A stretch of 64,000 nucleotides of DNA from Deltaproteobacteria bacterium (GTDB lineage Bacteria > Desulfobacterota > Dissulfuribacteria > Dissulfuribacterales > DYLC01), in NCBI GenBank assembly GCA_028695735.1, contig JAQVIJ010000004.1:64671-128670 (forward strand), read 5' to 3'. A program made the position numbers and the translations under genes. Shown in pieces: positions 1,705-32,515 of this stretch. Each line of letters begins with the position of its first letter. Position 1 is the stretch's first letter. The notes beneath the pieces were generated by a model. The model had not been told where the DNA came from and made no database searches. It was given only the letters and a program-made list of their open reading frames with translations.

Positions 1705-1725
1705 GTTGCGTTTAAGGAGGAAGAC

Positions 1726-2985: not shown

Positions 2986-2986
2986 G

Positions 2987-4513: not shown

Positions 4514-4529
4514 TTGCACCCGTTGACAA

Positions 4530-7408: not shown

Positions 7409-7421
7409 AATTGTAACGGTA

Positions 7422-9207: not shown

Positions 9208-9332
9208 ACAAAAAAACGCTCACATCCACATCTCCTGTACCACTGGCCCAATGGCAAAGCCGTATTGTTGGCAGCAGTAAGCCTGACCTTATCGCCATGA
9301 AAGTCACCTAATTTCGCTTTACCTTACGCTGA

Positions 9333-15100: not shown

Positions 15101-15223
15101 CCTAACGCACCGCTCACCATAGTCATCAACGGTGTTCACTTCGACACTGGCTTCGCGTTGAAGGAGTTTGCCACGCTTGCCGGAATCGAATTGAAGCCGG
15201 GCGAAGTGATTCAGGAGGATTGA
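12101..15223 (+). CDS. Large DUF499-type P-loop ATPase
   Basis: 1040 aa. Walker A AMGGGKTHMM and Walker B TLILLDELPPY. The N-terminal pattern is recognised as the DUF499 family. The C-terminal region has an Ig-like FYTLDGSNPKDGTRYDGPFEI motif. Confidence 0.75.
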   Translation: MIKTVKQACRFNPIIRDYRMSQGIENLVELINDAGDGREFFSRNYVTHGMEQLFREGLLRLSGKSDQAVFELTQAMGGGKTHMMIALGLLARHPHLRKDVLPADLTSRIEFDQARIAAFNGRNNPDNYIWGEIASQLGAEDAIKPYWANGPKAVDQRKWKEIIGYEPTLILLDELPPYLDNASTQVFGQGTLAKMVVYSLSSLMSAALELPRCAIVIANLSGSYTQATKALREAISNLQQETRRQAMTITPVQLAGNEIYEILKKRLIDELPDERVISDIAEEYAQQIKKAEDGGYIVASSIEQIAEEVRQTYPFHPSFKHLVALFKENEGFRQTRGLMQFTARLLKSVEDRETDDVFLIGAQHLNLNDDQVRDEIERIAPKLMPAVTHDIADNGNAIAEHIDDELGSDAARQVMTLLLASSLSRVVGGRIGLSESELIEFLAAPQRKPDEFLQALQRLREAAWYLHREEQRFFIKETENLSRQIERNAKEIPQPKIDQALINRLTGILEPVRKIAYQEVQVLPKLDELKLSGPRTLIVIKPDGKVPPSELQNFFDYQTEKNNLLVLTGQDSLLADAVEERLRELYAIEQIHKRLRPGDTLYEEARDRLEDAEQRFNKALSAAYNRLYFPVNDPGDDRDVLAGVTIDQGLKLGQGDQSAEAQIESLLASPIANYKLVRELTKDNLNEYFAMAEEYLWPKGADNRRTPWKDVVTRAKCSPIWPWMPGASGLDTLKTEALKQGRWRLGEDGYIEKGPFPKDKATVNVSVINVKADTGETVLSLTPRHAGESPVVYWSTKPDVSDKDHKVEDLDNFSSTEGTLYFWVKDTTGQHESAPPVRWLADLKIRHQVEPAADKRRVTLAVTPRADLFYTLDGSNPKDGTRYDGPFEIGSASCRLLVFARAGEANKTADFQIPASGDKMVQIVDSKPARLQSKRVALDTTDRVFGVINRFRDQPGTRFKGVRVEIGEGENTVTVRFQEREVTAAIIEGVVNSLREVLKEPNAPLTIVINGVHFDTGFALKEFATLAGIELKPGEVIQED

Positions 15224-15225
15224 GG

Positions 15226-15858
15226 ATGGCACAAGCCAAGGCCGCAGCCAATACCGAATCACCGAAGCCGCGCTCACAAATGCCGCATACGCTGGGCTTC
15301 GGGGTGCCGGCCACCTCTGACCCGCATCACTTCAAGGTGATTATCCCCAGGAGCAGCACGGGCAAGGTCTTGATCAGCGAGTACCTCGGTCTGCAATCGG
15401 CCTCGGCGGAGAGTGCGGTGATCGACCGCGTCTTGCTCGACAGGCCGCGCTGGACAGCGATCCGTGCCGAAGTGCAGCGAGCCTTCAACGCCCGCCTCAC
15501 CGCACATGGCCTGAAGCCCAGCGCGTGGAAAGTCGGCGAAAACCTGGTGGACCGCCTGCTCGGCAAGGAGCTCTGTGTCCTTGCCTGGGCTGTGGAGCAG
15601 ATGGATGCTGACAGAATTCCTGTTGCCGTGCGGAATTGGCTCGCACTGCGGCCAGAAGAACGCTGGTGGCTGTTTGGCATGACCGCCATGACAACCGGCG
15701 GGGTGATGGATGGAGGCAAGGGGTGGCGTGCCGCCCTTCAGCACGCCTTGGGCGATGTGGTGCAGAGTGAGTTGCTCGCTCTTCGTGCCCGACGTGGCAA
15801 GCTGGAACAGAAAGTTGCCCAGGTCTCATTAGGGCTGTTCGGAGACGAAGTGCCATGA
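15226..15858 (+). CDS. DUF3780-like small protein (usual partner of DUF499/DUF1156)
   Basis: ATG 15226 is preceded by caggagg. The track start at 15220 is a TTG. The family call rests on memory of the conserved DUF499-DUF3780-DUF1156 gene order. Confidence 0.5.
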   Translation: MAQAKAAANTESPKPRSQMPHTLGFGVPATSDPHHFKVIIPRSSTGKVLISEYLGLQSASAESAVIDRVLLDRPRWTAIRAEVQRAFNARLTAHGLKPSAWKVGENLVDRLLGKELCVLAWAVEQMDADRIPVAVRNWLALRPEERWWLFGMTAMTTGGVMDGGKGWRAALQHALGDVVQSELLALRARRGKLEQKVAQVSLGLFGDEVP

Positions 15859-16520
15859 ACACCGTACCCCAGAAGCCCAAAATTTATCACATCGTCCATG
15901 TGGATCGTCTGCCCTCCATCGTGGCCGCCGGCTTCCTCTGGTGCGACGCGGAGGTCATTCGTCGTGCGCTCGCGGGTACGACCATCGGCATGAGCAGAAT
16001 CAAGCAGCGGCGCTTGACCCTGCCACTGAACAGCCACCCCGATCTGCACGTAGGCGACTGCGTGCCGTTTTACTTCTGCCCGCGCTCGGTGATGCTGTAC
16101 CTGATCTACCAGGGCAATCATCAGGATCTGGAGTATCGCGGCGGGCAGGCCCCAATCCTGCATCTCGAAGCGGATCTGCATGCCACCGTTGCTTGGGCAC
16201 AAGCCCAACAGAGGCGGTGGGCCTTCACCCTCTCGAACGCCGGTTCGTACTTCTTCGAGGACCGTTGCGATTTGGCATGCCTCGACGAAATCGACTGGGC
16301 GGCCGTTCAAGCCCTGGACTGGCAGCAGTGCAAGGAAGGCAAGCAAGCCGAGTTTCTGCTGGAGCACAGCTTTCCCTGGCACCTGATCGAGCGCATCGGC
16401 GTGCTCAATTACACGATCTATCAACAAGTTGTGAAGGCCCTTCCGCTAAACGGACACCGACCTACGGTCAAAATCTGCGAGGATTGGTATTACCGAGAAA
16501 TGAGAGGAGCACAGCTATGA
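15855..16520 (+). CDS. darT: DarT ssDNA thymidine ADP-ribosyltransferase (DUF4433 toxin)
   Basis: 221 aa. KIYHIVHVDRLPSI start, CVPFYFCPRSVMLY, and KQAEFLLEHSFPW carrying the catalytic-Glu context. ATGA overlaps on both sides. Confidence 0.8.
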   Translation: MNTVPQKPKIYHIVHVDRLPSIVAAGFLWCDAEVIRRALAGTTIGMSRIKQRRLTLPLNSHPDLHVGDCVPFYFCPRSVMLYLIYQGNHQDLEYRGGQAPILHLEADLHATVAWAQAQQRRWAFTLSNAGSYFFEDRCDLACLDEIDWAAVQALDWQQCKEGKQAEFLLEHSFPWHLIERIGVLNYTIYQQVVKALPLNGHRPTVKICEDWYYREMRGAQL

Positions 16521-17566
16521 TCGAGTTCACCTCGGGTGACATTCTGAAGTGTGAGGCCGACGCGCTGGTCAACACCGTCAACTGCGTCGGCATGATGGGT
16601 CGCGGGATTGCCTTGCAGTTCAAGAACGCCTTCCCTGAGAACTTCAAGGCCTATGAGGCTGCGTGTAAGCGCCAGGCCGTGCAGCCTGGGCTTATGTTTG
16701 TCTTTGAAACAGGGCAGCTCACGCCACCGCGCTTCATCATCAACTTTCCGACTAAGCGCCATTGGCGCGGCAAGAGCCGCATCAAGGACATCGAAGCAGG
16801 TTTGGTCGATCTGGTTCGGGTCATTCGCGAAAAGGGTATCCGCTCCATCGCCATCCCACCGCTGGGCTGTGGCTTGGGGGGCTTGGACTGGCGCGAGGTG
16901 CGCCCCCGCATCGAGCAAGCGTTGGAGCAACTGGCAGACGTGCACGTGCTCGTGTTCGAGCCCAACGGTGCACCCACCACGGACAAGATGACCCATGTGC
17001 GTGAAGTGCCGGCCATGACCGCGGGTCGCGCGGCCCTCGTTGAGTTGATTCACCGTTACCTTAGTGGCCTGCTCGACCCCTTCGTGACCTTGCTCGAGGT
17101 GCACAAGCTGATGTACTTCATGCAGGAGGCAGGGGAGCCGCTGCGCCTGAAGTACGTCAAGGCACCTTATGGCCCCTACGCCGAGAACCTGCGCCATGTG
17201 CTGCGCACGGTCGAGGGACACATGATCGCGGGTTACGCCGACGGCGGCGATGCGCCAGACAAGCCTCTGACGCTGGTTCCCGGCGCCATCCAGGAGGCAT
17301 CCGCCTTCCTCGACCAACATGCCGACAGCCGTGAACGCTTCGAGCGTGTCACCCGCCTCATCGAGGGCTTTGAGTCGCCCTATGGCCTCGAGCTGCTCTC
17401 GACCGTGCATTGGGTCATGACGCGCGAGGGCGGCAGCCAGCTCGATGACGTGGCCGAGCGCATCTACGCCTGGCACCCGCGCAAGCGTCAGTTCACGCTT
17501 CGACAGATTGCTATCGCTGCCGACAGACTGACCGCCCAAGGTTGGGTGCAGGCAGCGACCGCTTGA
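16517..17566 (+). CDS. darG: DarG macrodomain antitoxin (DNA ADP-ribosyl glycohydrolase)
   Basis: Start at ATG 16517 (MIEFTSGDILKCEADALVNTVNCVGMMGRGIALQFK, macrodomain). 349 aa with a C-terminal partner-binding domain. The upstream 192 codons of the track ORF overlap darT out of frame. Confidence 0.8.
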   Translation: MIEFTSGDILKCEADALVNTVNCVGMMGRGIALQFKNAFPENFKAYEAACKRQAVQPGLMFVFETGQLTPPRFIINFPTKRHWRGKSRIKDIEAGLVDLVRVIREKGIRSIAIPPLGCGLGGLDWREVRPRIEQALEQLADVHVLVFEPNGAPTTDKMTHVREVPAMTAGRAALVELIHRYLSGLLDPFVTLLEVHKLMYFMQEAGEPLRLKYVKAPYGPYAENLRHVLRTVEGHMIAGYADGGDAPDKPLTLVPGAIQEASAFLDQHADSRERFERVTRLIEGFESPYGLELLSTVHWVMTREGGSQLDDVAERIYAWHPRKRQFTLRQIAIAADRLTAQGWVQAATA

Positions 17567-17579
17567 AAAACCCCTCGCC

Positions 17580-20519
17580 ATGCACGCACAAACAAGACCC
17601 ACCCTCTCCCCACTGGCGCTGAAAGACGCCCCCGCTCTGATCGAGACGGTCTTTCCGGCGCAGAAGGTGTCCTTCGAGGCGCAGACCGAACGCAAGGCAG
17701 GCCGAGGACAGACCCTTACAGGGCTCGGCTCTTTTTGGAAAGGCCGCAAGCCCCTGATCCTGGTGCGGGCCATCGTGCTGGGCAGCCTGCTCCCCCCCAC
17801 CGATGACCCCGAGGCCGATCTCGCGGTGTTCGAAGCGCTGCTGGCCTTCGACGACGAGGGGCTGGCGCGGCGCGCGCTTGCCGCCAATGCGTTCTCGGCC
17901 GCCAAGCTGCAAGAGATGATCCCGATTGCCGACCCCGAGCGCTACTTCAGCGGTCGCGGCTGGCGGCGTGACGTGAGCAACGACGACAAGCTCGAATTGT
18001 ACCGCCGCGCGCTGGCGACACTGCCCAGCTACGAAGCCAAGGCCGCCCTGTGCAAGCGTCCCGAAGAAGTGGATCAGGACTGGCTCTATGCGCCTGTATG
18101 GCCCAAGGTCAACCGCCACTATGCGCACTTAGGTATCGATGCGCATTCGTTCCCGCAGCTCATCGAGCAACTGGGCATCCTGCGCTATGGGCATCGTCCG
18201 CGCGTCGGCGACACTTTCTGCGGCGGCGGCTCCATCCCCTTCGAGGCGGCGCGTATCGGTTGCGACGTCTATGCCTCCGACCTGAACCCCATCGCCTGCA
18301 TGCTCACCTGGGGGGCGCTGAACATCATCGGCGCCAATCCGCAACGTCGTGCTGAACTTGAACAGGCACAACGTGAAGTCGCTCAGGCGGTGGATGCGGA
18401 AATCACCCGGCTGGGTATCGAGCACGACGAATACGGCAACCGCGCCAAGGCGTATCTCTATTGCCTGGAGACGCGCTGCCCTGAAACGGGTTGGATGGTG
18501 CCGCTCGCCCCCAGTTGGGTCATTTCCAAGACGCGCAATGTGATCGCCCGCTTGGTTCCCGATTCGTCCGCCAAGCGCTTTGTGATCGAGATCGTAAGCG
18601 GCGTGAGTGACGCAGAACTCAAGGCCGCCGAGCGCGGCACGGTGCAGGACGGCGATATGGTCTATGAACTCGACGGCAAGAGCTATCGCACCCCCATCAA
18701 GACCCTGCGCGGGGACTATCGGCTGCCTGATGGCAGCACGGGCAATCGGCTGCGCCGCTGGGAAAAACACGATTTCAAGCCGCGCCCGGAAGACATCTTC
18801 CAGGAGCGGCTCTATTGCATCCAGTGGATCAAGAAGGAAACGATCGACGCCGCCCGCCAAGAGACCTGGTTTGCCGAGCCCACCGAGGCGGACCTGGAAC
18901 GTGAGCGCAAGGTGGAGACCATCGTCGCCAAGAACCTTACCCGCTGGCAGGAAGAAGGCTTGGTGCCCGACATGGCCATCGAGCCGGGGTACAACACCGA
19001 CCAGCCGATCCGCGAGCGCGGCTGGACGCATTGGCATCACTTGTTCAATGCGCGGCAACTGCACATGCTGCAAGCTATCTTGCACCATGGGCGGACTACT
19101 TTCACTTGGCTGGCTATCCTAGGCATCTTGAATTTGCAGTCCAAGCTGTGTGCATGGCATAACGATGGACGGAAGGGAGGGCTTCAGAATGCGTTTTATA
19201 ATCAGGCGCTGAATACGCTCTTTAACTGGGGTTCGCGTGGGCTGATTGATCTCATTGATTACATCCAACTTGACACCAAGAGCTCGCCCGTACGTCAATC
19301 ACTCAGACTGAGCGCAGTCCCAGCTGATCAACTCACCGATCATGCGGAGATTTGGATCACCGACCCCCCCTACGCCGACGCGGTGAACTACCACGAGATC
19401 ACTGAGTTCTTCATTGCCTGGCTGCGCAAGAACCCGCCCAAGCCGTTCGACGAATGGGTGTGGGATTCGCGCCGGGCGCTGGCGATCAAAGGCGCGGGTG
19501 AAGACTTCCGCCGTGGCATGGTGGCCGCCTACCGGGCCATGCGTGAGCACATGCCCGACAACGGCCTACAGTGCGTGATGTTCACCCACCAGGACACCGG
19601 CGTCTGGGGCGACCTGATCGGCATCTTCTGGGCGGCAGGCCTGCAAGTGGTGGCCGCCTGGTATATCGCCACCGAGACCACCTCCGAACTCAAGAAAGGC
19701 GGCTACGTCCAGGGCACCGTGATCCTGATGCTCAAGAAGCGCCCGCCCGGCGAGCGGCCTGGCTTCAAGCAGCGCCTGTTGCCCGCGGTGCGTCAAGAGG
19801 TGGCGCGGCAGATCGAGACCATGATGCACCTGAACGATACGGTGAAGGCGCATTACGGCGAGCCGGTGTGGAGCGACGCCGACCTGCAGATGGCGGGCTA
19901 TGCGGCGGCACTGAAGGTGCTCACGGCCTACACACACATCGGTGGCGAGGACGTGACGACTTTCGCGCTGCGCCCGCGTGCCCGCGGGGAGGTGACCGTC
20001 GTCGATGAGATCGTCCAGCAGGCGGCAGAGACGGCTTCGAGCCTCTTGGTGCCTGAAGGCCTGGCCCCAGACACCTGGGGGCGGCTGACCGGCATCGAAC
20101 GATTCATGTTGCGGATGCTGGACATGGAGACGACTGGCCCGACCAAGCTGGACAACTACCAGAACTTCGCCAAAGCCTTCCGTGTGGAGGACTACAGCCG
20201 CGTGATGGGCGATGTGCGCCCCAACCACGCACGCCTAAAGCGCGTCACCGAGTTCTCCTCCCGCGATTTGACCGAGTCCACGGAGATCGGTGCCACCCGA
20301 CTAGGGCGACTGATCATCGCCTTGCAGCAACTGCTGAAGGACACCGAGCCGCAGGTCATCGTCGAACAGCTCAAGCACGAGATGGCCGACTTCCTGGAGG
20401 TGCGGCCGCTTTTGGTGGACCTGCTGGCCTTTATCGAGCGCAAGTCGCCGGAACCCGAGGTGCGAAATGCCGCCGAGGTGGTGGGTGCGCGGCTTAAAAA
20501 TTTGAGATTTGGGGAGTAA
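17580..20519 (+). CDS. DUF1156-type DNA methyltransferase (N6A/N4C class, DPPY)
   Basis: 979 aa. N-terminal ETVFPAQKVSFEAQTERKAGRGQTLTGLGSFWKGRKPL (DUF1156 pattern), SAM motif DTFCGGGSIPFEAARIG, and catalytic WITDPPYADAVNYHE. Confidence 0.8.
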   Translation: MHAQTRPTLSPLALKDAPALIETVFPAQKVSFEAQTERKAGRGQTLTGLGSFWKGRKPLILVRAIVLGSLLPPTDDPEADLAVFEALLAFDDEGLARRALAANAFSAAKLQEMIPIADPERYFSGRGWRRDVSNDDKLELYRRALATLPSYEAKAALCKRPEEVDQDWLYAPVWPKVNRHYAHLGIDAHSFPQLIEQLGILRYGHRPRVGDTFCGGGSIPFEAARIGCDVYASDLNPIACMLTWGALNIIGANPQRRAELEQAQREVAQAVDAEITRLGIEHDEYGNRAKAYLYCLETRCPETGWMVPLAPSWVISKTRNVIARLVPDSSAKRFVIEIVSGVSDAELKAAERGTVQDGDMVYELDGKSYRTPIKTLRGDYRLPDGSTGNRLRRWEKHDFKPRPEDIFQERLYCIQWIKKETIDAARQETWFAEPTEADLERERKVETIVAKNLTRWQEEGLVPDMAIEPGYNTDQPIRERGWTHWHHLFNARQLHMLQAILHHGRTTFTWLAILGILNLQSKLCAWHNDGRKGGLQNAFYNQALNTLFNWGSRGLIDLIDYIQLDTKSSPVRQSLRLSAVPADQLTDHAEIWITDPPYADAVNYHEITEFFIAWLRKNPPKPFDEWVWDSRRALAIKGAGEDFRRGMVAAYRAMREHMPDNGLQCVMFTHQDTGVWGDLIGIFWAAGLQVVAAWYIATETTSELKKGGYVQGTVILMLKKRPPGERPGFKQRLLPAVRQEVARQIETMMHLNDTVKAHYGEPVWSDADLQMAGYAAALKVLTAYTHIGGEDVTTFALRPRARGEVTVVDEIVQQAAETASSLLVPEGLAPDTWGRLTGIERFMLRMLDMETTGPTKLDNYQNFAKAFRVEDYSRVMGDVRPNHARLKRVTEFSSRDLTESTEIGATRLGRLIIALQQLLKDTEPQVIVEQLKHEMADFLEVRPLLVDLLAFIERKSPEPEVRNAAEVVGARLKNLRFGE

Positions 20520-20523
20520 AGAG

Positions 20524-20937
20524 ATGAAATCCGATTTTTTGGATGCCCACGAACGCCATTGGCAAGACGCCGAAACGCTCTTTTGGAGGAAGCGCTGGGC
20601 TAATGCAGATCATCTTTATGGCATGGCGGCCGAGTGTGGATTGAAACGCTTGATGCTGGCCTTTGGGATGCCATATGACACCCAAAATGATCGCCCTGAA
20701 GAAAAAGAGGATCGGGTCCACGCCAACGGCATCTGGGCACGCTTCGAGAGCTACAGCGGCTATCACCAGGGTGCCGGCTACGCGTTGCCAGCGCCCAATC
20801 CTTTCGGCAATTGGGATGTGGCGCAGCGTTATGCCCACCAATCCAACTTTGACCGTGAGCGAGTGGATGCGCATCGCAAAGGTGCCAATTCGGTGCGCGG
20901 CCTGGTCCATAAGGCGCTGCTGGATGGGTTAATATGA
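20524..20937 (+). CDS. Hypothetical 137-aa helical protein (possible HEPN-like, speculative)
   Basis: ATG 20524 lies 7 nt after a ggggag SD. Helix-rich sequence with an R-x5-H (RERVDAH) near the C-terminus. No confident family match. Confidence 0.5.
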   Translation: MKSDFLDAHERHWQDAETLFWRKRWANADHLYGMAAECGLKRLMLAFGMPYDTQNDRPEEKEDRVHANGIWARFESYSGYHQGAGYALPAPNPFGNWDVAQRYAHQSNFDRERVDAHRKGANSVRGLVHKALLDGLI

Positions 20938-22253
20938 TGACTTTCGACGAGATTCTGCCAACAGTTCGAGAAATGCTTGACGCGCATCAAGCAGATGTGA
21001 AACGGATCGATTGGTTGCTCATCAACCGAGATCTTTATGGTCGGGTGCGGTTGATCGCCCCGGAAACTGCGCGGGAGGATGACGCCTCTCGCACCGCCCT
21101 GGAAACACTGGCGGTGCGCTTCGCCGAGCGGCTCGGTGCACATGCCTACCCGCCCGACTTGGCCATTCTCTATGAAGCCGATAAAAAGCTGGCTTTCCAG
21201 GGCGCCGCAGCCTTCCGGCTCGAAGGCCATGACAACGTGTGGTTGGTGGACCGCCTGGCGACCGAGAGCAACTGGGCAAGCATTGCGCCAGAAAGCACGG
21301 GTGCGCCGCGAGTCGTCTTCTTTTCCATCAAAGGAGGCGTGGGGCGATCGACCGCAGTGGCGGCTTGTGCATGGAAATTGGCGCAGTTGGGCAAACGGGT
21401 GCTGGTTCTCGATCTGGACCTGGAATCTCCTGGGCTATCGACTCATCTACTCCCATTCGAGCGCCAGCCTCGCTATGGGATCACCGATTGGCTGGTCGAG
21501 GACCTCGTGGATAACGGGCAGAGCGTATTCGAGGAGATGTACGCCACCAGTGAATTAGCTCGGGACGGAGAGATTTACGTCGTGCCTGCCCACGGTAGAG
21601 AAGCGGGCGAATATGTGGCTAAACTGGGCAGAGTATGGATGCCAAAAATCCATTCGGAAGGGAGGCGTGACTCATGGTCTCGCCGTTTGCAGCGCCTCTT
21701 GCAGGCGTTGGAAGAGCGTCTCCGTCCGGATGTGATCTTGATCGACTCGCGTGCCGGAATCGATGAGATAGCCTCTGCCTGCGTGACCGATCTATGTGCG
21801 AACCTGGTGTTGTTATTCGCACTGGATGGCAATCAGACCTGGAGCGGTTACCGGATTCTCTTCCAGCATTGGTTGCGCGCCGGCGTTGCGCAGGAGATAC
21901 GCAAAAGATTGCAGATCGTCGCTGCTTTGGTGCCTGAAATCGCCCCTTCTGATTATTTGGCTGATTTGCGTGAACATGCCTATGATCTCTTCCTCGATAC
22001 CTTGTACGACGAGATCGAACCTGCGGATACCGAGGGGTGGAGTTTCGACTTGGCGGATGAAACGGCGCCGCATCGACCGTTGGCGGTGCGCTGGCATCGT
22101 GGCTTTGCCGCCTTACGCACCCTGTATGGAAGGTTTGAGCAGATCGATGAGAATGAGATTCGGCTTGTATTTGGCGATTTGATCGATTTCCTCTTGTATT
22201 ATTTGGAGTGGGGTGATGGGTACATCCAAGTTATCGATGGAGGTAGGTTTTGA
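20934..22253 (+). CDS. ParA/MinD-like ATPase with a deviant KGGVGR Walker A and an unknown ~125-aa N-terminal domain
   Basis: VVFFSIKGGVGRSTAVAACAWKLAQLGKRVLVLDLDLESPGL, and Walker B-like VILIDSRAGIDE. ATGA overlap with the upstream gene. Confidence 0.7.
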   Translation: MMTFDEILPTVREMLDAHQADVKRIDWLLINRDLYGRVRLIAPETAREDDASRTALETLAVRFAERLGAHAYPPDLAILYEADKKLAFQGAAAFRLEGHDNVWLVDRLATESNWASIAPESTGAPRVVFFSIKGGVGRSTAVAACAWKLAQLGKRVLVLDLDLESPGLSTHLLPFERQPRYGITDWLVEDLVDNGQSVFEEMYATSELARDGEIYVVPAHGREAGEYVAKLGRVWMPKIHSEGRRDSWSRRLQRLLQALEERLRPDVILIDSRAGIDEIASACVTDLCANLVLLFALDGNQTWSGYRILFQHWLRAGVAQEIRKRLQIVAALVPEIAPSDYLADLREHAYDLFLDTLYDEIEPADTEGWSFDLADETAPHRPLAVRWHRGFAALRTLYGRFEQIDENEIRLVFGDLIDFLLYYLEWGDGYIQVIDGGRF

Positions 22254-23662
22254 GTAATGAAATTGCCATGATCAATACATACGTCCTGCGGGAAGCCATT
22301 CTCGCCGCACCATTGGAAACCAGCAATTTCGGAGAGGTGCCAAACGCCGGACAGCTCTATGTGCCGCCTTCGCACCTCAAGGCGCTACGCCTGGAAGCGC
22401 AGATCGTCGTGGGTGGTCGTGGCGTGGGCAAGTCATTCTGGACGGGCGTGTTGCAGTCGGATTCACTGCGTTCCTTGGTTAGCAAGGATGCGCAGGAACT
22501 TGCTGATGTAGTGGTTCGGGTCGGTTTTGCGGCTTCAGAAAACATGGCCATGTACCCAAACGCCGATGTCTTTGCAAACTTTCTCGATAAAGAAGGAGAC
22601 CCCTACGATTTGTGGCGCGCTGTGATACTGCGTTGGGTCGCAGAGATGTCTGGACAGAGGATTCCCTGCCAAAGCTGGATGGAGACCGTTGCCTGGATGA
22701 AGGATCAACCGGAAGACGCAGCGCTTCTGATGCAGCAGCCGCGAAACTGGCGTGGCTTGATCGTGTTCGATGCACTCGATCGCACCAGTAACGACTGGAA
22801 TCGGATGGATGTCATCGTACGTGGGCTGCTGCGCGCGATACTGTGGCTCAAGTCTTTCCGAGGACTCTACGGCAAGGTATTTCTGCGCGAAGACCAGGCG
22901 AAACGTACGGTATTCAACTTTCCCGATGCCTCGAAACTGATGGCGACTAAGGCCGAGTTGACCTGGGCCAGGCACGATCTGCACGGGTTGCTCTGGCAGC
23001 GCCTGATCAATGCCCCTAACGAGCATGGAGAAATCATGCGCAAGATTTGTGCCCACGAGCAGCGTGAAGGCATTTGGCGAGTCGCTGCTGAAATGACCCG
23101 TGATTCCGAAGCGCAGCGCAAGGCTTTCGAGCAGTTGGCTGGTCCTTGGATGGGGCGTGATAAGCGCCGTGGTGTTCCTTACACCTGGTCGGTCGGACAT
23201 CTGGCAGATGCCCGCGGCCAGACTTCCCCACGCTCGTTTCTTGCGGCTATTCGTCAGGCAGCGGAGGATTCAAGTGAGCGGTATCCTGATCACGACTATG
23301 CACTACATTACGAGAGCATCAAACGTGGTATTCAGAAGGCCTCAGAAATCAGGGTACAGGAAGTGGCGGAGGATTATCCTTGGATTAAGGACGTTCTCTC
23401 TGTTTTGAAGGGAATGAATGTGCCATGCGCTTACGAGGATATCGTGCAGCGTTGGCAGCAGCAATTTCCAGACGGACCCCAGGGTATATATTCAGAGCGG
23501 CTTCCGGCGCAACATGCCATTCAAGGCTGGGATGGGATTCGTGAGGACTTGATGCAGCTTGGACTGATCGAAGTTAAGAAAGATGGGCGCATCGATATGC
23601 CCGATCTTTACCGCGTGGGTTTCGGCTTGGGCCGCAAAGGCGGCGTGAAGCCCAGGAATTGA
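22250..23662 (+). CDS. P-loop NTPase of unknown function (resembles the family I recall as Sll1717-type)
   Basis: Walker A VVGGRGVGKSFWTG and Walker B LIVFDALDR. The TTG start at 22250 overlaps the upstream stop. An alternative ATG is at 22268. Confidence 0.6.
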   Translation: MSNEIAMINTYVLREAILAAPLETSNFGEVPNAGQLYVPPSHLKALRLEAQIVVGGRGVGKSFWTGVLQSDSLRSLVSKDAQELADVVVRVGFAASENMAMYPNADVFANFLDKEGDPYDLWRAVILRWVAEMSGQRIPCQSWMETVAWMKDQPEDAALLMQQPRNWRGLIVFDALDRTSNDWNRMDVIVRGLLRAILWLKSFRGLYGKVFLREDQAKRTVFNFPDASKLMATKAELTWARHDLHGLLWQRLINAPNEHGEIMRKICAHEQREGIWRVAAEMTRDSEAQRKAFEQLAGPWMGRDKRRGVPYTWSVGHLADARGQTSPRSFLAAIRQAAEDSSERYPDHDYALHYESIKRGIQKASEIRVQEVAEDYPWIKDVLSVLKGMNVPCAYEDIVQRWQQQFPDGPQGIYSERLPAQHAIQGWDGIREDLMQLGLIEVKKDGRIDMPDLYRVGFGLGRKGGVKPRN

Positions 23663-23668
23663 GGCGGG

Positions 23669-26422
23669 ATGGCCATTCGCCGCTTCTCCTCACGCACCCA
23701 CCGGCTCGATGTCAGCTTCCTGATGCAGCATCTGGTCGGTGCCAGGAGCTACAAGCGCATTGCCGGCTACTTCACTAGCTCGCTGTTCGAGGTGGCCGGC
23801 GAGGTGCTGGAAGAGATTCCGGAAGTCAAGATCGTCTGCAATGTGGACATTCACCCGGACGACCTGAAGGTGGCACAGTTGCGCGAAAGCAAGATGCTGG
23901 GCCGTTGGAACGAGCGCGGGATAGAGGCCGAGGCGCTCTTAAACCGCGAACGCTACCGGCGTCTGGATGCCTTTCTCCAGAAGCATGGGCAGGCGGTACG
24001 GGTCGCACCCGACGACATCTGTGGCTTCGTCCACGGCAAGGCCGGAGTGATCACGCTTGCCGATGGCCGCAGACTGGCTTTCATCGGGTCGATGAACGAG
24101 ACAAGAAGCGGCTGGCAGCGCCACTACGAAATCCTGTGGGAGGATGAGTCACCAGAGGGTGTTGCGTGGCTCGAGGAGGAGTTCGAATTCCTATGGAACG
24201 CCGCCAAGCCGCTGCCCCAGGCGGTCATTCGCGAGGTGCATCGCCGTGGCTATCGCCGCGAGGTGGTCTTCGATGAGATCGATGAGGACGAGAACCTTGC
24301 TCCCGCCGCCCTGATCGAGTCGCCGCTCTACCGCGAAGGGCAGCAACTTCAGCCTTGGCAGCAAGGGTTTTTGACCGAGTGTTTGCGCCACTACCGACTC
24401 TACGGCGTGGTGCGGCTGTTGCTCGCCGACGAGGTTGGCCTGGGCAAGACGCTGTCGCTCGCCACCGCTGCGCTGACGCTGTGCCTGCTGTCGGATAAGG
24501 AAAACGGTCCGCGCCGTCCGGTGGTGATCTTCGCTCCCGCCACTCTGACTGAGCAATGGCAGACCGAGATGCTGGACAAGCTGGGCATCCCGACCGCCCG
24601 GTGGGATACCGTGCGCAAGGTGTGGCTGGACGCGGAGGAGCGCGCCATTTCTCCGGCGGGCCGCGAGCAGGTGGCATGTTGTCCGCTGCGCATCGGCATC
24701 ATCTCCACTGGCCTCATGATGCGCGATTCATCGGAGAAGCAGCATCTCCTGGGCTTGCGATTTGGCGTGGTCATTCTGGACGAGGCGCACAAGGCGCGCA
24801 CGCGCCAAGGCTTTGGCAAGGAAGCCGGAACGCCGAACGAACTGCTGGCGTTCATGCGCGAGATCGCCGCCCGGGCCGATCACGTGCTGCTGGGAACGGC
24901 CACGCCGATTCAGACCAACCCTGTCGATCTGTGGGATCTGCTGGGCATCCTGCATCAGGGCTCGGAACGCTTCGTGCTGGGTCATGACCTTGCGCCATGG
25001 CACCGGCCAGAAGACGTGCTCGACATCCTGGCAGGCCGCGTTCAGGTGGAATCGCTGACCCATGCGTGGGAACTGTTGCGGTCGCCACTTCCGCGCATGG
25101 AATCAACCAGTGAGCCTCGCGCCCGGCGCTTGTTCTCGGCCATCCGGCAAGACCTGGGATTGCAAAGCGGGGAGTGGCAAACCAATCGTTCGCTGGCCGA
25201 TCTGACGGAAGAAACGCGGGAGATTCTGGAGGAGGAACTGGAGCGTCGCATAGCAGGTGCCACGCTATTCCAGCGCGAAAACCCTCTGGTACGCCATGTG
25301 GTACTGCGTAAGCGCCAGCAGCTCGAAGAAACGAAGGACAAGGATGGCAGACCCTTGCTGACCCCCGTAGGTGTGGATGTTCATCCCGACCGCGACAAGG
25401 TCATGGAGCAGCGCGGCTTCGATGCCTTGTTTGAAGGCAAGGCATTGCGCACCTCGGAGGACTTCCGCCAGGCTTATTGCGAGGCCCGCGCTTTTGGCAA
25501 GGCGCTGGCCAAACGCGGCAGGGGCAGCGGCTTCATGAAGAACCTGCTGGAACAGCGCATCTGTTCCAGCATTCAGGCAGGACTTGCAACAGCTCAAAGG
25601 CTTTTGCAAGGAGATGCCTTACATGAGGAAGGGGACGAGTTCGAGACAGACCTGAAAGTCGAAACGGACGAAGAACGCAAGATTCTTGAGCATCTGATCG
25701 ACCGTCTCCAGCGGCTAAGTAGCGATCCCAAGATGGAGGCCGTGATCCACTTTCTTGACAAGGAGAAGTGGCTGAATCTTGGCGTGATCATCTTCAGCCA
25801 GTACTACGACACCGCCAAATGGCTTGCAGATGAACTTGCCGCACGATATTCCGAGGAGGCCATAGGCCTCTATGCGGGTGCAGGACGCAGCCGCCTCTAC
25901 CAACGAAGTGACAGCGTTGCTGTGGAGCGTGAGACCCTAAAGCGCATGGTCGCCGAGCACCAGATTCGAATCATGGTGGCGACGGATGCTGCATGTGAGG
26001 GTCTCAATCTACAGACGCTCGGCACTTTGATCAATGTGGACCTACCGTGGAATCCGACGCGATTGGAACAGCGCCTTGGCAGAATCAAGCGCTTTGGCCA
26101 AAGGCGAGAAACCGTTGACATGCTCAACCTGGTCTTTGAACAGACGGTTGATGAGAAGATATACCAAAGGCTGTCCGAGCGTATGCGTAACCGCTATGAC
26201 TTATTTGGGTCCCTGCCTGATACTATCAAAGACGAGTGGATTGAGGACATCGAGTCCCTTGGAGAAAAACTGGATGAATATATCAACGCCCAGAAAAGGG
26301 CGACTGGCTTTGATCTACGCTACACGGCAACCATGAGTCCCCAGGATAGAGAGTGGCGGGACTGCACAGAGGTTTTGTCACGACGGGATGTGGTGCAGTT
26401 AATGACCACCCCCTGGAACTGA
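23669..26422 (+). CDS. PLD-family nuclease domain fused to an SNF2/DEAH helicase
   Basis: Single HKD motif (FVHGKAGVITL..GSMNET). Helicase motif I LLADEVGLGKT, motif II VILDEAHKAR, and C-terminal LATDAACEGLNLQ..NVDLPWNP..EQRLGRIKRFGQ. Confidence 0.8.
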   Translation: MAIRRFSSRTHRLDVSFLMQHLVGARSYKRIAGYFTSSLFEVAGEVLEEIPEVKIVCNVDIHPDDLKVAQLRESKMLGRWNERGIEAEALLNRERYRRLDAFLQKHGQAVRVAPDDICGFVHGKAGVITLADGRRLAFIGSMNETRSGWQRHYEILWEDESPEGVAWLEEEFEFLWNAAKPLPQAVIREVHRRGYRREVVFDEIDEDENLAPAALIESPLYREGQQLQPWQQGFLTECLRHYRLYGVVRLLLADEVGLGKTLSLATAALTLCLLSDKENGPRRPVVIFAPATLTEQWQTEMLDKLGIPTARWDTVRKVWLDAEERAISPAGREQVACCPLRIGIISTGLMMRDSSEKQHLLGLRFGVVILDEAHKARTRQGFGKEAGTPNELLAFMREIAARADHVLLGTATPIQTNPVDLWDLLGILHQGSERFVLGHDLAPWHRPEDVLDILAGRVQVESLTHAWELLRSPLPRMESTSEPRARRLFSAIRQDLGLQSGEWQTNRSLADLTEETREILEEELERRIAGATLFQRENPLVRHVVLRKRQQLEETKDKDGRPLLTPVGVDVHPDRDKVMEQRGFDALFEGKALRTSEDFRQAYCEARAFGKALAKRGRGSGFMKNLLEQRICSSIQAGLATAQRLLQGDALHEEGDEFETDLKVETDEERKILEHLIDRLQRLSSDPKMEAVIHFLDKEKWLNLGVIIFSQYYDTAKWLADELAARYSEEAIGLYAGAGRSRLYQRSDSVAVERETLKRMVAEHQIRIMVATDAACEGLNLQTLGTLINVDLPWNPTRLEQRLGRIKRFGQRRETVDMLNLVFEQTVDEKIYQRLSERMRNRYDLFGSLPDTIKDEWIEDIESLGEKLDEYINAQKRATGFDLRYTATMSPQDREWRDCTEVLSRRDVVQLMTTPWN

Positions 26423-26534
26423 CCTTCTCCTGTTCTTCTTGGGCCTTTCGTGCTATCATATTCAGCATGTCGATGAGCCATGCCGCAGACGGACACCTCC
26501 ATCCGTATATTCAGGGGTCATTAGAAGAGATATT
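26418..26534 (+). repeat. Right copy of the perfect 117-bp direct repeat
   Basis: Identical to 11797-11913. It starts 2 nt before the TGA of the helicase gene and contains the start codon of the next gene. Confidence 0.95.
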
Positions 26535-29391
26535 TCAGGAACAGGATCGCTACGCCATGCGCGTTCGCTGGAATGGACGGTTGTTTCAAGTGAGCGCGGC
26601 TAAAGTCTTTGCCCCCTCTCTTCAGGCCGCACTGTTGCTTTCCCATCACCTGCCCGTGGAGATCTCCCTGATAAATGCCATGCAGAAAGGCGAAGAACTG
26701 CTTCTGGATTTGGCAAAACAGGCATATTTTGTGTTGGAGCCCAATTGGCTCATCAATGTCACCACACTCACACAACTGGATTATTGCAAACGAACCTATC
26801 TCAACCAGCGTTTTTCCATACGCAAAACCAACAGGTTTTTGATCAAGGGTTCCGTCATTCATGCCGTTTTTGAGGATATCTTAAAAAACCATACGGATCA
26901 CGAGGCATTGAGGCAGAAGATGTCGAATGTCTTAAACAGTTATGCCCTGGAGTTTGCATTTCTCGATTTGAATATTGAGGAACTTGAAAGTGATATCAGG
27001 GGACATCTGAACAGGCTCTATCTATATCGCAAACAAAAACTGAAAAAAATCAGCAAGATATTTACAGAACGCTATCTCATTGACAACAGGATGGGCTTGA
27101 AGGGCAAGATCGATGCGGTGGTGGAATACGAGGACGGCAGTCTTCAGGCCCTGGAACTCAAGACAGGCAAGGGCTGGGGCGCCTTTGCAAAGAGGGGGCA
27201 TGCCTTTCAGGCCCAGGCCTATTCCCTGATGCTTAAAATGAAGTTTCCGGAAAAGCGGATACTGGCGCCTGTGATCATATACTCAGGCGAGGATAAAAAG
27301 GCCGAATTTCTTACACGCAGGGTAGCCATGTCCTATGCAGACACGGTCAATCTGATGAACATGCGAAACGAGCTCATAGCAGCAGACCTGACCGGCAGGC
27401 TCGATTTCCAAAGGGATGAAAGGCGCTGCGCCAGGTGTTCGAATCGCTTTGAATGTGAATTTCTGGCGGAGTTGTGCCACGGTGAGGGCGTGGATGCAAA
27501 GGTGTTCAATGTCTATGTGAAGGCCATGCTGGAGGAATACAGCCTCATAAAGCGGACCCAGGGCCGTTATTTCGCCATGAATGCCCAGGAGCGCATGAAG
27601 CAGGGCCGGTGCCTTCAGGTCTTTGCCAGTGAAAAAGGCGATGATACCAGTGAATTGATCCTTTTTTGCGAGAACAATTCTGAACTCAGAGAGGGCGACA
27701 GGTGTCTGCTGAGCGATGCTGAGGGGCCATTGGGGCCTCATTGTGTGGAGTGTGTGCTTTCGCATGTGGAGCATGACAGAGTGGGGGTGACGCTTGCACA
27801 GCCCGTAACCGAACTCTGGTTCAGGCCGGAATATTTAGACATACACTCGTCGGAGACCCTTTTCGAGGTGAATTTTGCTGGATTCATCGAGCTGTTCAGG
27901 AATGCCGGGCTCAGGGACCTGCTGAAACTGTTGCACCAGACCCATGCTGCCGGCCCATGCCAGCCGGCCTTTAGTGGTGTATCGCATGTGCCCGATGTCT
28001 GCTGCGGTGAGGTGTCCTGCGCCGAGGACGACCTGTCGGCCTCTCAGCGTCAGGTCATTCAAAGGTCGCTTGAAGACGAAAGGCATCTGCTGGTACAGGG
28101 GCCTCCAGGCACCGGAAAGACATACACCATAGCCCGCATGATTCATGCCTTGCGCAAGGCGGGTAAGCGGGTCATGGTGGCCTGTTTCACGCATCGAGCC
28201 GTGGAGGAGGTCTGTCTCAAGCTCATGGCCGCGGCGCCTGATCTGGAGTTCTACTGTCTGGGTTTCATATCGAATCTCAATGGACAAATCCCTTGTCTGG
28301 AACAGGTGATATCAGGCCATGCCACTGTAAACGGCCGTATGGCAGTCCTGAAGGACCTGGCTGCCCGCAACCCTGTTTATGTGGCCACCACCCATGCCTG
28401 GTTTTCCGGCAGGTATGATGCCCTGGCCACGGAGGAATTATTTGATGTCGCCATAGTGGACGAGGCAGGGCAGCTTCTGCTTCCTCAGACCATCGGGGCT
28501 GTCAGGCTGGCCAGACGTTTTGTCCTGGTTGGGGATCACAGGCAGCTTCCGCCCGTAGTGCAAAGTCCCAGGGCCGGCCTGCTCAAAGAGACGCTCTTTG
28601 AACTCATGCTGAAACACAGCGATTCGGCGGTGAACAAGCTCATGCTGACCGAGCAGTTCCGTATGCCTGAGCCGGTTGCAGACCTGATTTCAAGGGAATT
28701 TTATGAAGGAAGACTGGTATCGGCCCCTGTATGCACGGTGGACAGGGGCGCATTGCATGTACCCGATGGGGGTATGGCGCTACACGGTGTGAATAATCTG
28801 CTGGAGTGTCTGTGCACCAGCCCCCTGGTGTTGATGGATGTGCCGTCGCCGTCTTGCATGTCCGGCGCTACGGTCAAGCAGAACCTGCACGAGGTAAACG
28901 CCGTAATAGGTGTTTTAACAGCATTGAATTTCAATGGTGCCTGCCTGGAGGTCGAGGGTAAAAGGCCCCCGCTGGGGATCATAGCCCCATTCAGGTCACA
29001 GGTTGCAGCGCTGCGCAAGGCCGTTCAGAGGCATTTTGGTGTCCATCTCAGTGGGCCTTTTGAAGTCAGGGCCATGGTGGATACAGTGGACCGGTTTCAA
29101 GGGGATGAGCGGGATGTCATGTTGTTGTCCCTGTGTATCCCCAACGGAGAGCTGCCTGAGCTCTATGCGGATGCAAGGCGGCTGAATGTGGCGGTGTCCA
29201 GGGCCAGAAAACAGCTCATTGCCATAGGCGATTGGCAATTGGCCGAGAATCTGCCGGTACTGGCCAGCTTCAAGGAAAACGCCCTGAAACAGAAGGGCTG
29301 CCTCTACATAGACAGGGAATCATGCAGGGAGTATGTCTTTGGTGCAGGCTTGCCGGGTCTTTCAGGACGGACAAATGCCCACCAGTTTTAG
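26467..29391 (+). CDS. Dna2-like protein: Cas4-type PD-(D/E)xK/Fe-S nuclease domain plus an SF1B (Upf1/Dna2-like) helicase
   Basis: Start at ATG 26467. Nuclease motifs DYCKR, KGKIDAVVE..ALELKTGK, QAQAYSLM and CARCSNRFEC. Helicase motifs GPPGTGKT, VDEAGQ, GDHRQLPP and RFQGDERDVMLLS..NVAVSRAR. Confidence 0.75.
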   Translation: MSMSHAADGHLHPYIQGSLEEIFQEQDRYAMRVRWNGRLFQVSAAKVFAPSLQAALLLSHHLPVEISLINAMQKGEELLLDLAKQAYFVLEPNWLINVTTLTQLDYCKRTYLNQRFSIRKTNRFLIKGSVIHAVFEDILKNHTDHEALRQKMSNVLNSYALEFAFLDLNIEELESDIRGHLNRLYLYRKQKLKKISKIFTERYLIDNRMGLKGKIDAVVEYEDGSLQALELKTGKGWGAFAKRGHAFQAQAYSLMLKMKFPEKRILAPVIIYSGEDKKAEFLTRRVAMSYADTVNLMNMRNELIAADLTGRLDFQRDERRCARCSNRFECEFLAELCHGEGVDAKVFNVYVKAMLEEYSLIKRTQGRYFAMNAQERMKQGRCLQVFASEKGDDTSELILFCENNSELREGDRCLLSDAEGPLGPHCVECVLSHVEHDRVGVTLAQPVTELWFRPEYLDIHSSETLFEVNFAGFIELFRNAGLRDLLKLLHQTHAAGPCQPAFSGVSHVPDVCCGEVSCAEDDLSASQRQVIQRSLEDERHLLVQGPPGTGKTYTIARMIHALRKAGKRVMVACFTHRAVEEVCLKLMAAAPDLEFYCLGFISNLNGQIPCLEQVISGHATVNGRMAVLKDLAARNPVYVATTHAWFSGRYDALATEELFDVAIVDEAGQLLLPQTIGAVRLARRFVLVGDHRQLPPVVQSPRAGLLKETLFELMLKHSDSAVNKLMLTEQFRMPEPVADLISREFYEGRLVSAPVCTVDRGALHVPDGGMALHGVNNLLECLCTSPLVLMDVPSPSCMSGATVKQNLHEVNAVIGVLTALNFNGACLEVEGKRPPLGIIAPFRSQVAALRKAVQRHFGVHLSGPFEVRAMVDTVDRFQGDERDVMLLSLCIPNGELPELYADARRLNVAVSRARKQLIAIGDWQLAENLPVLASFKENALKQKGCLYIDRESCREYVFGAGLPGLSGRTNAHQF

Positions 29392-29612: not shown

Positions 29613-29685
29613 GCCCTCGTAGCTCAGGGGATAGAGCACAGGATTCCTAATCCTGGTGTCGCAGGTTCGATTCCTGCCGGGGGCA
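29613..29685 (+). tRNA. tRNA-Arg (anticodon CCT), CCA not encoded
   Basis: Cloverleaf folded by hand. Acceptor gccctcg/cgggggc with one G-U pair, D-arm gctc/gagc, anticodon stem cagga/tcctg with loop ttCCTaa, and T-arm gcagg-ttcgatt-cctgc. Confidence 0.85.
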
Positions 29686-29705
29686 ATCTTTTTTTGGAGG
29701 GAATC

Positions 29706-30848
29706 ATGTGTCGTTTAGCCCTTAAGACCGCCTCCATTCCCTTTTCTCCCCATGGAGTGCTTCAGGCCATGGAGTCCATGAGAGAAGGTTATGACGGCAG
29801 CGGCCTCGGTTTGCTGTTGCGTGGCGTCAGATTCACTGATTTCAATTATTCTTCCACCGATCCCATCTTTTCAGGTATAGCCCACACTGAACAAGCCCTG
29901 CATCGCTTCAACAAGTTCATGGAAGAAAAGGGATTTCTGCTCAAGTACGACCACCAGTTTGTCACGGACCTGTCTCGCATAGAGGCCAGGGACAGGCACA
30001 AGTATCTGGTGCGTGTGTATAAAAGACCTGAGAGCTGGTCCCGTCTCACACCAGAGGAACAGGAATACGAGTTGATGATGACCCGTCTTAGCCTGCGTCA
30101 CGACGGCGAAAAACACGGTGGCGACCTGACCGCCTTTTCATTCTGGCCTGATGTGGTCATGATAAAGGAGGTGGGATGGCCTCTGGAGGTAGGGGCTGCC
30201 CTGGGGTTGCAGGATGATCGCATTCTGGCCCGTCTGGTAATGGCTCAGGGCAGGCAGAACACCAACTGGGGCATCAATCTCTACGCCTGTCACCCATTCT
30301 TTATTCAGGGCATCGCCACCATGACCAACGGCGAAAACACCGCCTTTGTGCCCATTCGGGACTGGCTCATGGGCAGACGTTTCCCTGGCTATATGGGCTA
30401 TCAAAGCGACAGCGAGGTCTTTACTCACATTTTACATTATACCTTAAACCGCTTGAAGCTCCCACTTGAGGCATATAAGCATGTCATCACGCCCTTAAAA
30501 ACAGAGGAACTGGACCATCATCCACAAGGCGAGTTCCTGAAGGGCCTGCGCAATGTCTGCCGAAGGCTCATCATCGACGGCCCCAATTGCGTGATGGGTT
30601 CATTGCCCGACGAGACCTGTTTTATGGTGATGGATCACAAAAAGATGCGTCCAGGGGCCATCGGCGGCAGGCCGGGTGTATGGGCCATGGCATCAGAACT
30701 CTGTGGAGTGGATGCCATGGTGCCTGACAGGGACCCGGCCCTGGATTTTCAGCCCATGCGTGAGCACACAGTAGTGGTGTCTTCTGACAGAAAGGATTAC
30801 AAGATATGGTCGCAGTTTCATCCATTCCATCTTCCCCAAGCGATCTGA
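29706..30848 (+). CDS. Class II (Ntn) glutamine amidotransferase, glutamate-synthase large-subunit domain 1-like
   Basis: Start set at MCRLALK so the nucleophile Cys directly follows Met. First gene of a three-gene split glutamate-synthase-like cluster. Confidence 0.7.
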   Translation: MCRLALKTASIPFSPHGVLQAMESMREGYDGSGLGLLLRGVRFTDFNYSSTDPIFSGIAHTEQALHRFNKFMEEKGFLLKYDHQFVTDLSRIEARDRHKYLVRVYKRPESWSRLTPEEQEYELMMTRLSLRHDGEKHGGDLTAFSFWPDVVMIKEVGWPLEVGAALGLQDDRILARLVMAQGRQNTNWGINLYACHPFFIQGIATMTNGENTAFVPIRDWLMGRRFPGYMGYQSDSEVFTHILHYTLNRLKLPLEAYKHVITPLKTEELDHHPQGEFLKGLRNVCRRLIIDGPNCVMGSLPDETCFMVMDHKKMRPGAIGGRPGVWAMASELCGVDAMVPDRDPALDFQPMREHTVVVSSDRKDYKIWSQFHPFHLPQAI

Positions 30849-32452: not shown

Positions 32453-32515
32453 GAAATGGAGTGAACGGCTGTCGTCCCATCGGGGCGTAAATGGAAATAG
32501 AGAAAGAGGATTGTC

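Follow-up and report, generated by a model that had tools for sequence, protein, structure and literature searches.

The DNA analyzed here, hereafter the window, is a stretch of 64,000 nucleotides (nt) from a deltaproteobacterial genome (assembly GCA_028695735.1, contig JAQVIJ010000004.1, positions 64,671 to 128,670). Between the DUF1156 N6-methyltransferase gene and the PLD(HKD)-Swi2/Snf2 helicase (PLD-helicase) gene of a restriction-like cassette it carries three adjacent, co-oriented genes, A, B, and C (Table 1), of the same family and gene order as the PADLOC candidate PDC-M28. The trio is tightly packed between its neighbors, with the junctions that the initial annotation had described: the methyltransferase stop codon (20517-20519) is followed by a 4-nt gap (agag) and the ATG of A at 20524, A and B share an ATGA overlap (20934-20937), B and C a TTGA overlap (22250-22253), and the helicase ATG at 23669 follows the C stop codon after 6 nt. 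A GGAGG sequence lies 5 nt 5' of the TTG start of C, and use of the in-frame ATG at 22268 would give a protein of 464 residues, which is the length of most C homologues. A scan for promoters and terminators from 11.5 to 30 kb performed no better than on shuffled sequence, and the trio is probably transcribed together with the surrounding cassette. Database searches returned ~983 homologues of A, ~2444 of B, and ~2040 of C, spread across several phyla, and because of these numbers we regard all three as genuine genes rather than chance open reading frames (ORFs).

Protein A matched the PADLOC model PDC-M28A (PDLC04558) with E 4e-57 over residues 1-136 of 137, B matched PDC-M28B with E 2e-183 over residues 1-420 of 439, and C matched PDC-M28C with E 6e-204 over residues 10-469 of 470. 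The arrangement of the genes is likewise that of PDC-M28, with no difference at the family level, and the same models were also matched by distant trios on plasmids. The term PDC denotes a "phage defence candidate" and originates in the preprint of Payne et al. (2024, bioRxiv 10.1101/2024.01.29.577857), in which candidates were found by guilt-by-embedding and 145 untested ones were put into PADLOC after known defense, mobility, and housekeeping functions had been removed. Its supplement gives cassette CAS_00115, with three protein families, a tabulated count of 121, and the entry "Assign as candidate PDC-M28"; no domain description of PDC-M28 was found in the main text or supplement. Our literature searches found no paper naming PDC-M28, KGGVGR, or Sll1717, and nothing relevant on HEPN proteins with a ParA-like ATPase in an anti-phage role. 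As a PADLOC entry exists and no paper naming PDC-M28 was found, we consider the module catalogued yet uncharacterized. The initial annotation had taken it to be uncatalogued, which does not hold (PADLOC lists it, B passes the NCBIfam KGGVGR model, and C falls just under the cut-off of the Sll1717 family); its statement that no characterized system has this composition agrees with the literature search, in which none turned up.

Products of the three genes

The AlphaFold2 (AF2) model of A, made from 30 homologues, is all-helical (predicted local distance difference test score, pLDDT, 85.8; predicted template modeling score, pTM, 0.85). The 11 best matches of this model to PDB structures by Foldseek were all HEPN domains, at probabilities of 0.75-1.0 and template modeling (TM) scores of 0.46-0.61, the matched structures including ST0689, TT1696, SsR10, sacsin HEPN, AF_0298, 4nqf, and TM0613. 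Pfam PF05168, a HEPN model, recognizes the product of the first gene in the PDC-M28 copy of a Calothrix plasmid at 23.9 bits (cut-off 22), and the record itself labels this gene HEPN; two other A homologues have a weak HEPN_AbiV match. By its predicted structure A is a divergent HEPN-fold protein, and what had been put forward as a weak guess is borne out by the fold and by the Calothrix match. Protein A had no match in Pfam, NCBIfam, or PHROG, and profile searches of PDB sequences with the A and C alignments returned nothing beyond chance level (Mex67, BUD31, and Ras). Public records often call this 138-residue HEPN-fold protein a "SAM-dependent methyltransferase" (P0001, P0041, P0058, P0061, P0062, and P0118), a name that receives no support from the profile and fold results.

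The motif RERVDAH, noted in A at the outset, is present in the window, but its first arginine varies among homologues. Close-clade homologues keep R113-x3-H117 and distant homologues keep neither residue, while R11, H12, D15, E37, C38, K41, R102, and Y103 are invariant across seven distant homologues. HEPN proteins of the PF05168 type often lack the motif histidine and have a conserved histidine elsewhere (Anantharaman et al., 2013, Table 1, PMC3710099). As judged from the alignment, the R11-H12 pair of A is compatible with such a displaced histidine, and its activity is putative.

Protein B consists of a family-specific N-terminal domain of ~120 residues and an ATPase domain of the ParA/MinD type. 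The N-terminal domain is conserved in distant homologues (F4, R32, D33, G36, and W114) and was found in 102 representatives among 1.84 billion proteins, nearly always at the N-terminus, with full-length matches of 420-460 residues; it had no significant Pfam match (BPL_LplA_LipB_2, E 0.016, being at chance level). The ATPase domain passes NCBIfam NF047398 ("KGGVGR-motif variant AAA ATPase") over residues 125-313, scoring 204.4 bits where 90 are required, and there were weak matches to Pfam CbiA/ParA/ArsA and to ParA, MinD, ArsA, and BcsQ profiles. Its P-loop reads SIKGGVGRST, as initially noted, with KGGVGR at residues 133-138: the signature lysine is present as Lys133, whereas Arg138 takes the place of the P-loop lysine, so that B departs from the deviant Walker A pattern of ParA/MinD proteins (KGGxxGK[ST]). 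In distant homologues the motif is invariant as KGGxGR, with K133, G134, G135, G137, R138, D160, and D162, the segment DxDLExPG, and the Walker B residue Asp271 (D271) all invariant.

The ParA/MinD motifs of B and its weak ParA, MinD, and BcsQ profile matches might be taken to mean that the trio is a housekeeping system for chromosome or plasmid partition. We consider this very improbable and have rejected it: no ParB was found and the P-loop lysine is replaced. More specifically, no ParB-like partner was seen in the trio, the window cassette, or the plasmid flanks examined (centromere-like repeats were not searched), B is obligatorily partnered with a HEPN protein and an AAA+ ATPase, and the patchy distribution, horizontal-looking transfer, and location inside restriction-like operons described below do not suit a partition role.

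The larger B homologues P0426 and P0435 carry no fused effector domain. A third, P0458 (929 residues), is a fusion of B and C (B part E 2e-84, C part E 6e-82) without any Pfam match. From its sequence this fusion points to B and C working together in a single complex, and the degenerate motifs of its B part (KGGVGC, DLGLE, and LLENCSG) suggest that the chemistry of B may be dispensable in some lineages.

Protein C has a classical Walker A (GGRGVGKS) and Walker B (LIVFDALDR), both as first reported, and alignment of its homologues identified G55, R57, G58, G60, K61, D174, R213, and D215 as invariant, the conserved Arg213 being at the sensor-1 position. There was no Pfam match, and the score of 73.4 bits against the NCBIfam Sll1717 family (NF047389; cut-off 75), which covers residues 164-447 only, makes C a borderline relative rather than a certified member of that family. 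In Foldseek the AF2 model of C matched Orc1/Cdc6 and BrxC with E-values of 8e-5 to 1e-3 (probability ~1; the best, Orc1/Cdc6, at 8e-5), with CED-4 also among the best matches. The model thus looks like an AAA+ ATPase of the ORC/Cdc6/STAND type with a helical C-terminal part. The Walker motifs, the arginine at the sensor-1 position, and the helical C-terminal part are shared with STAND and ORC sensors (Avs/AVAST-like proteins, BrxC, and DUF499); C differs from these in being much shorter, in lacking a fused effector or repeat-type sensor domain, in a sequence that is highly conserved rather than diversifying, and in the low TM score of its fold matches. The mean column identity of C over 30 close homologues is 81% (alignment A2), and 29 close homologues from several proteobacterial genera are 71-78% identical to the window protein.

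Two further observations concern the C family. C-like proteins of 28-31% identity occur on three Streptomyces plasmids (L098, L099, and L100) without a recognizable A or B, and the family is consequently broader than PDC-M28. The C homologue at 7046-8467 of the Thiodictyon locus L103 is named "KAP family NTPase" in its record; the profile and fold results give no support for this name.

Occurrence of the module inside and outside BREX-family operons

The cassette that surrounds the trio is a Type-2 BR (BREX-related) system. Such systems have four core genes, encoding a DUF499 ATPase, a DUF3780 protein, an N6-methyltransferase, and an HKD-Swi2/Snf2 helicase, and have been reported in 1120 taxa (Rakesh and Krishnan, 2026, PMC12839542). 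We rejected the trio as a core component of DUF499 cassettes, as its proteins match none of the four core genes and cassettes without it exist, in line with the initial placing of the trio outside the DUF499/DUF3780/DUF1156/helicase core. Among plasmids, a complete and uninterrupted cassette without the trio was found on Stutzerimonas p1_PM101005, and the 21 plasmid records that carry DUF3780 do not overlap with the 23 that carry a C homologue.

The occurrence of the module was surveyed in metagenomes with an alignment of close C homologues (A6), which retrieved 80 loci with C at 55-99% identity; an alignment of diverse C sequences (A5) was too divergent to serve as a locus query, and a single-protein scan of genome contigs with C gave one truncated locus. 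Comparison of the window proteins with the metagenome loci by tblastn left 57 loci informative for context. Genes A, B, and C were complete and in order in all 59 of the metagenome loci with room for the trio, so the neighborhood check that had been proposed at the outset showed strict co-occurrence. The methyltransferase and/or PLD-helicase genes adjoined the trio in 19 of the 57 informative loci (embedded loci), the other 38 had different flanks, and none was half-embedded. No recurrent neighbor was common to the flanks of 29 stand-alone loci. The slot between the methyltransferase and PLD-helicase genes is also filled by the trio in Methylococcus, Stenotrophomonas, Chloracidobacterium, and Prosthecobacter, and in Thermodesulfomicrobium the trio stands alone among housekeeping genes.

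More distant copies occupy other contexts. Full-length C homologues of 26-45% identity were present in the 23 plasmid records mentioned above, with stand-alone A-B-C order on plasmids of Tistrella, Enterobacter, and Paraburkholderia; the Enterobacter copy is on an IncF plasmid of E. asburiae (CP063442, 78224-81560), where an integrase and a TIR gene are its neighbors, and the copy on the Calothrix plasmid adjoins a type III res gene. In Streptomyces the module is nested in a BREX type 2 operon between pglW and pglX, directly upstream of pglX, and in Thiodictyon it is again within BREX type 2, two small genes after pglX and before pglY, pglZ, and brxD. In contigs from IMG/VR, among them IMGVR_UViG_2681813203_000002, the trio is carried by a lambdoid prophage of enterobacteria, where it separates the O/P replication genes from ninB/Q, with CII-, O-, and P-like genes on one side and NinB and a Q-like antiterminator gene on the other; it is oriented opposite to the flanking phage genes, and one of the prophage flanks is 92.6% identical to Escherichia phage PHB10. 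The spread over plasmids, a prophage accessory region, and restriction operons, together with the patchy phylogeny, is a pattern typical of defense or addiction modules.

In a neighbor-joining tree of 61 distinct C sequences the embedded and stand-alone copies were intermixed, requiring at least 6 context changes by parsimony. Setting aside the near-identical contig L019, the embedded loci were identical to the window at 64-82% of residues for A, 58-70% for B, and 56-82% for C, and at 79-91% for DUF499 and 76-90% for the PLD-helicase. Within embedded cassettes the trio is thus more divergent than DUF499 and the PLD-helicase, although C is highly conserved among close homologues.

These data bear on the proposal that the trio is an accessory of BREX-type methylation systems, serving as guard, loader, or regulator and dependent on the methyltransferase and helicase. 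A proposal of this kind would account for the third or so of informative close-clade loci that fill an identical slot with none half-embedded, for the distant versions nested near pglX in two unrelated hosts, and for the tree, which suggests several entries into, or exits from, the same slot. In the window, moreover, the trio has no room for a promoter of its own and is coupled to both neighbors, and C resembles BrxC and ORC-type ATPases, the class to which DUF499 belongs. Nevertheless, two-thirds of the informative loci have no cassette genes alongside, the trio is found by itself in housekeeping surroundings, on plasmids, and in a prophage, the DUF3780 and C plasmids are disjoint, a trio-free cassette is complete, and the cassette also harbors systems known to be independent, such as DarTG, leading us to regard the accessory role as unlikely. 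Because informative loci outside the cassette are twice as numerous as those inside, the trio is probably a module in its own right, and not a sensor or regulator that serves the window cassette. The initial suggestion of a sensor/effector or regulatory module therefore stands in part: the trio is uncharacterized, associated with defense, and outside the core, but with its loci mostly elsewhere it is probably not a sensor or regulator of this cassette. That the trio is PDC-M28 and that the module is autonomous from the cassette we hold with high confidence.

Surroundings of the trio in the window

The Type-2 BR cassette hosts the trio both in the window and in the 19 embedded metagenome loci, and differs in this from the plasmid-borne cassettes, which are without it. 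The trio is accompanied by a second nested module, DarT/DarG, in the slot between the DUF3780 and methyltransferase genes. This slot is filled differently elsewhere: by an AAA_21 gene and a Schlafen/HATPase gene in Methylococcus (L002), by an IS605 TnpB gene and unknown genes in Chloracidobacterium (L006-L007), and by a 185-residue remnant of the C-terminal half of DarG, without DarT, in Prosthecobacter (L008-L010). Modules nested in BREX, restriction-modification (RM), and Hma operons, such as PARIS, BrxU/GmrSD, DarTG, Septu, and the HEC-08 HEPN, resemble the trio in being optional, co-oriented with the host operon, and present outside it as well; their composition is different, and the defense role of the trio is that of a candidate.

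Table 1. Features of the window and of distant PDC-M28 copies. Positions are those of the window unless a locus is named.
Feature	Position	Strand	Details
DUF499 ATPase	12101-15223	+	Pfam, PADLOC
DUF3780 protein	15220-15858	+	Pfam, PADLOC
DarT	15855-16520	+	Pfam DarT, E 6e-60
DarG	16517-17566	+	NCBIfam DarG, 486 bits
DUF1156 N6-methyltransferase	17580..20519	+	PADLOC DUF1156_MTase, 1437 bits; directly 5' of trio
ORF A (PDC-M28A)	20524..20937	+	137 residues, ATG start
ORF B (PDC-M28B)	20934..22253	+	439 residues
B N-terminal domain, ~120 residues, family-specific	20934..21293	+	conserved in distant homologues
B ATPase domain, ParA/MinD type, KGGVGR class	21306..21872	+	NCBIfam NF047398
B KGGVGR motif	21330-21347		
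ORF C (PDC-M28C)	22250..23662	+	470 residues, TTG start
C Walker A	22412-22435		GGRGVGKS
C Walker B	22757-22783		LIVFDALDR
PLD(HKD)-Swi2/Snf2 helicase	23669..26422	+	PADLOC PLD_Helicase, 1389 bits; Pfam PLDc_2, SNF2-rel_dom, Helicase_C
Dna2/Cas4-like nuclease-SF1 helicase fusion (AAA_11/AAA_12)	26353-29391		1012 residues, GTG start
tRNA-Arg (CCT)	29613-29685		directly after cassette
Distant PDC-M28 copies nested in BREX type 2 (Streptomyces, Thiodictyon)	L016 5005-8419; L103 5198-8467		
Prophage copies of the trio (IMG/VR contigs)	L104 8249-11422; L106 8267-11440		

The ORF for the nuclease-helicase fusion has a partial match to PADLOC MkoA (E 1e-64) and, when read from its GTG, begins within the end of the PLD-helicase gene, the two sharing 70 nt. 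The 99%-identical metagenome contig L019 has this ORF as well, whereas the other related cassettes seen lack it.

The GC content is 0.57-0.64 across the cassette vs. 0.35-0.55 in the flanks, which encode housekeeping functions (proB/proA, a ComM-like gene, a histidine kinase, Fe-S MinD-like proteins, and GltB-like oxidoreductases). The region 4530-8849 encodes two paralogous MshEN/DUF202 proteins and a histidine kinase, with a GC content of 0.35-0.41 around 6-9 kb. The annotated flanking ORFs (547-11700 and 29694-34843) included neither an integrase nor a transposase. The cassette had been described as a mobile island; its higher GC content and the tRNA-Arg gene at its end make "island" reasonable, but with no integrase or transposase among those ORFs "mobile" is unproven.

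Putative function

We lean slightly toward a reading of PDC-M28 as a self-contained three-gene operon that moves between contexts and would act as an anti-phage or abortive-infection (toxin-like) module. Considered alone, a role in defense or abortive infection is somewhat probable. How the three proteins might share the work can be proposed only tentatively. Walker A mutants in which the P-loop lysine is changed to arginine favor nucleotide binding over fast hydrolysis. Given its arginine P-loop, B may bind nucleotide rather than hydrolyze it rapidly, and would serve as a dimerizing nucleotide switch or scaffold, attached to C via its private N-terminal domain. Protein C would be the nucleotide-driven ATPase that senses an infection cue, and B would keep the HEPN protein inactive, as has been proposed for HEPN-ParA/Soj pairs. 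The only candidate effector is A, which, after release or activation, might damage RNA through a HEPN site of non-canonical type, made up of R11/H12 with R102/Y103, or might bind a nucleotide ligand.

Two known arrangements provide the closest comparisons. In the first, a dyad of a HEPN protein (MAE_18760 family) and a ParA/Soj protein, the gene pair has been predicted to be a toxin and antitoxin (Anantharaman et al., 2013, PMC3710099), and a small HEPN protein likewise stands beside a proposed controlling ParA/Soj-type ATPase. The trio differs in that A resembles PF05168 (HEPN-T), without a MAE_18760-type Pfam match or a conserved Rx4-6H, in the additional N-terminal domain and the KGGVGR P-loop of B, and in the presence of a third obligatory gene, C. 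The second, the MNT-HEPN toxin-antitoxin module (MntA/HepT-type), likewise combines a HEPN-fold protein with a nucleotide-using partner, but the trio has no nucleotidyltransferase, its partners are two P-loop ATPases, and the Rx4-6H is not conserved.

The predicted toxin-antitoxin role of HEPN and ParA/Soj pairs (PMC3710099) raises the question of whether the trio is an addiction or stabilization module of mobile DNA, with a HEPN toxin and ATPase antitoxins and no role against phage. Plasmid copies next to integrases and other toxin-antitoxin genes would fit such a module, as would the variable flanks among which the trio seems to travel as a unit. At ~3.1 kb, with three genes and two large ATPases, it is however far larger than a typical toxin-antitoxin pair, and the way in which it recurs inside restriction-like operons and in the accessory region of a prophage is characteristic of defense genes; toxin-antitoxin and abortive-infection roles can also coexist. 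A pure addiction module consequently appears improbable to us.

It is also conceivable that the module acts on DNA, with C and B binding invader DNA and blocking its replication or segregation, and the HEPN protein serving as an adaptor or a nucleotide-binding subunit without catalytic activity. In their ATP-bound, dimeric form ParA/MinD ATPases bind DNA without sequence specificity, the best fold matches of C are origin-binding initiators with DNA-binding C-terminal domains, and the missing conservation of Rx4-6H in A would suit a non-catalytic subunit. We nevertheless think this quite unlikely, since the TM score of C to ORC is low (~0.3), the P-loop lysine of B is replaced by arginine and the motifs of B are degenerate in P0458, and the invariant residues of A (R11, H12, D15, E37, K41, R102, and Y103) resemble an active or ligand site.

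A further proposal ties the module to BREX-type methyltransferases as a guard: a HEPN system under the control of two NTPases, in which an ORC/STAND-like protein and the ParA-like protein with the arginine P-loop form a sensor complex and which would fire once the host system has been disabled by anti-restriction factors of a phage. Of the three nesting arrangements seen, two have the trio immediately next to the methyltransferase gene, and in the remaining one two small genes intervene. We regard this guard role as doubtful.

Several observations weigh against the reading of PDC-M28 as an anti-phage or abortive-infection module with a HEPN effector. The HEPN assignment meets with weak Foldseek E-values (0.06-1.1), with the lack of any Pfam HEPN match for window A even at E up to 10, and with the lack of the conserved Rx4-6H motif that a catalytic HEPN RNase would be expected to have at the start of its last helix; because of the latter, RNase activity of A is uncertain. 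The AF2 model of C is mediocre (pLDDT 68), its TM score to the fold matches is only ~0.3, and C is conserved to a degree unusual for a protein that would sense variable phage components. The fusion in P0458 could be an assembly frameshift instead, because the B and C genes overlap. With respect to context, the sampled neighbors of stand-alone copies are mostly ordinary metabolic and regulatory (housekeeping) genes, C had no match in 50,697 phage records, and E. coli genomes gave no DNA match to the window C gene or the prophage trio. Finally, PDC-M28 is listed as untested by Payne et al. (bioRxiv 10.1101/2024.01.29.577857).

PDC-M28 is widespread: each protein has ~1000-2400 homologues, several phyla are represented, and copies are found on plasmids, in a prophage, and in BREX-family operons. 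To the catalogue entry our analysis adds a domain-level reading, the autonomy of the module, its repeated nesting by BREX-family methyltransferase genes, the prophage location, the B-C fusion, and candidate residues. The question is thereby sharpened to whether PDC-M28 works alone or with a neighboring methyltransferase, and the enterobacterial copies, on the IncF plasmid CP063442 and in the lambdoid prophage, should be easily clonable in E. coli. If a role in defense is true, PDC-M28 would be a HEPN-based system in which control lies with an unusual pair of ATPases, and a further example of the defense modules that are nested in restriction-like operons.

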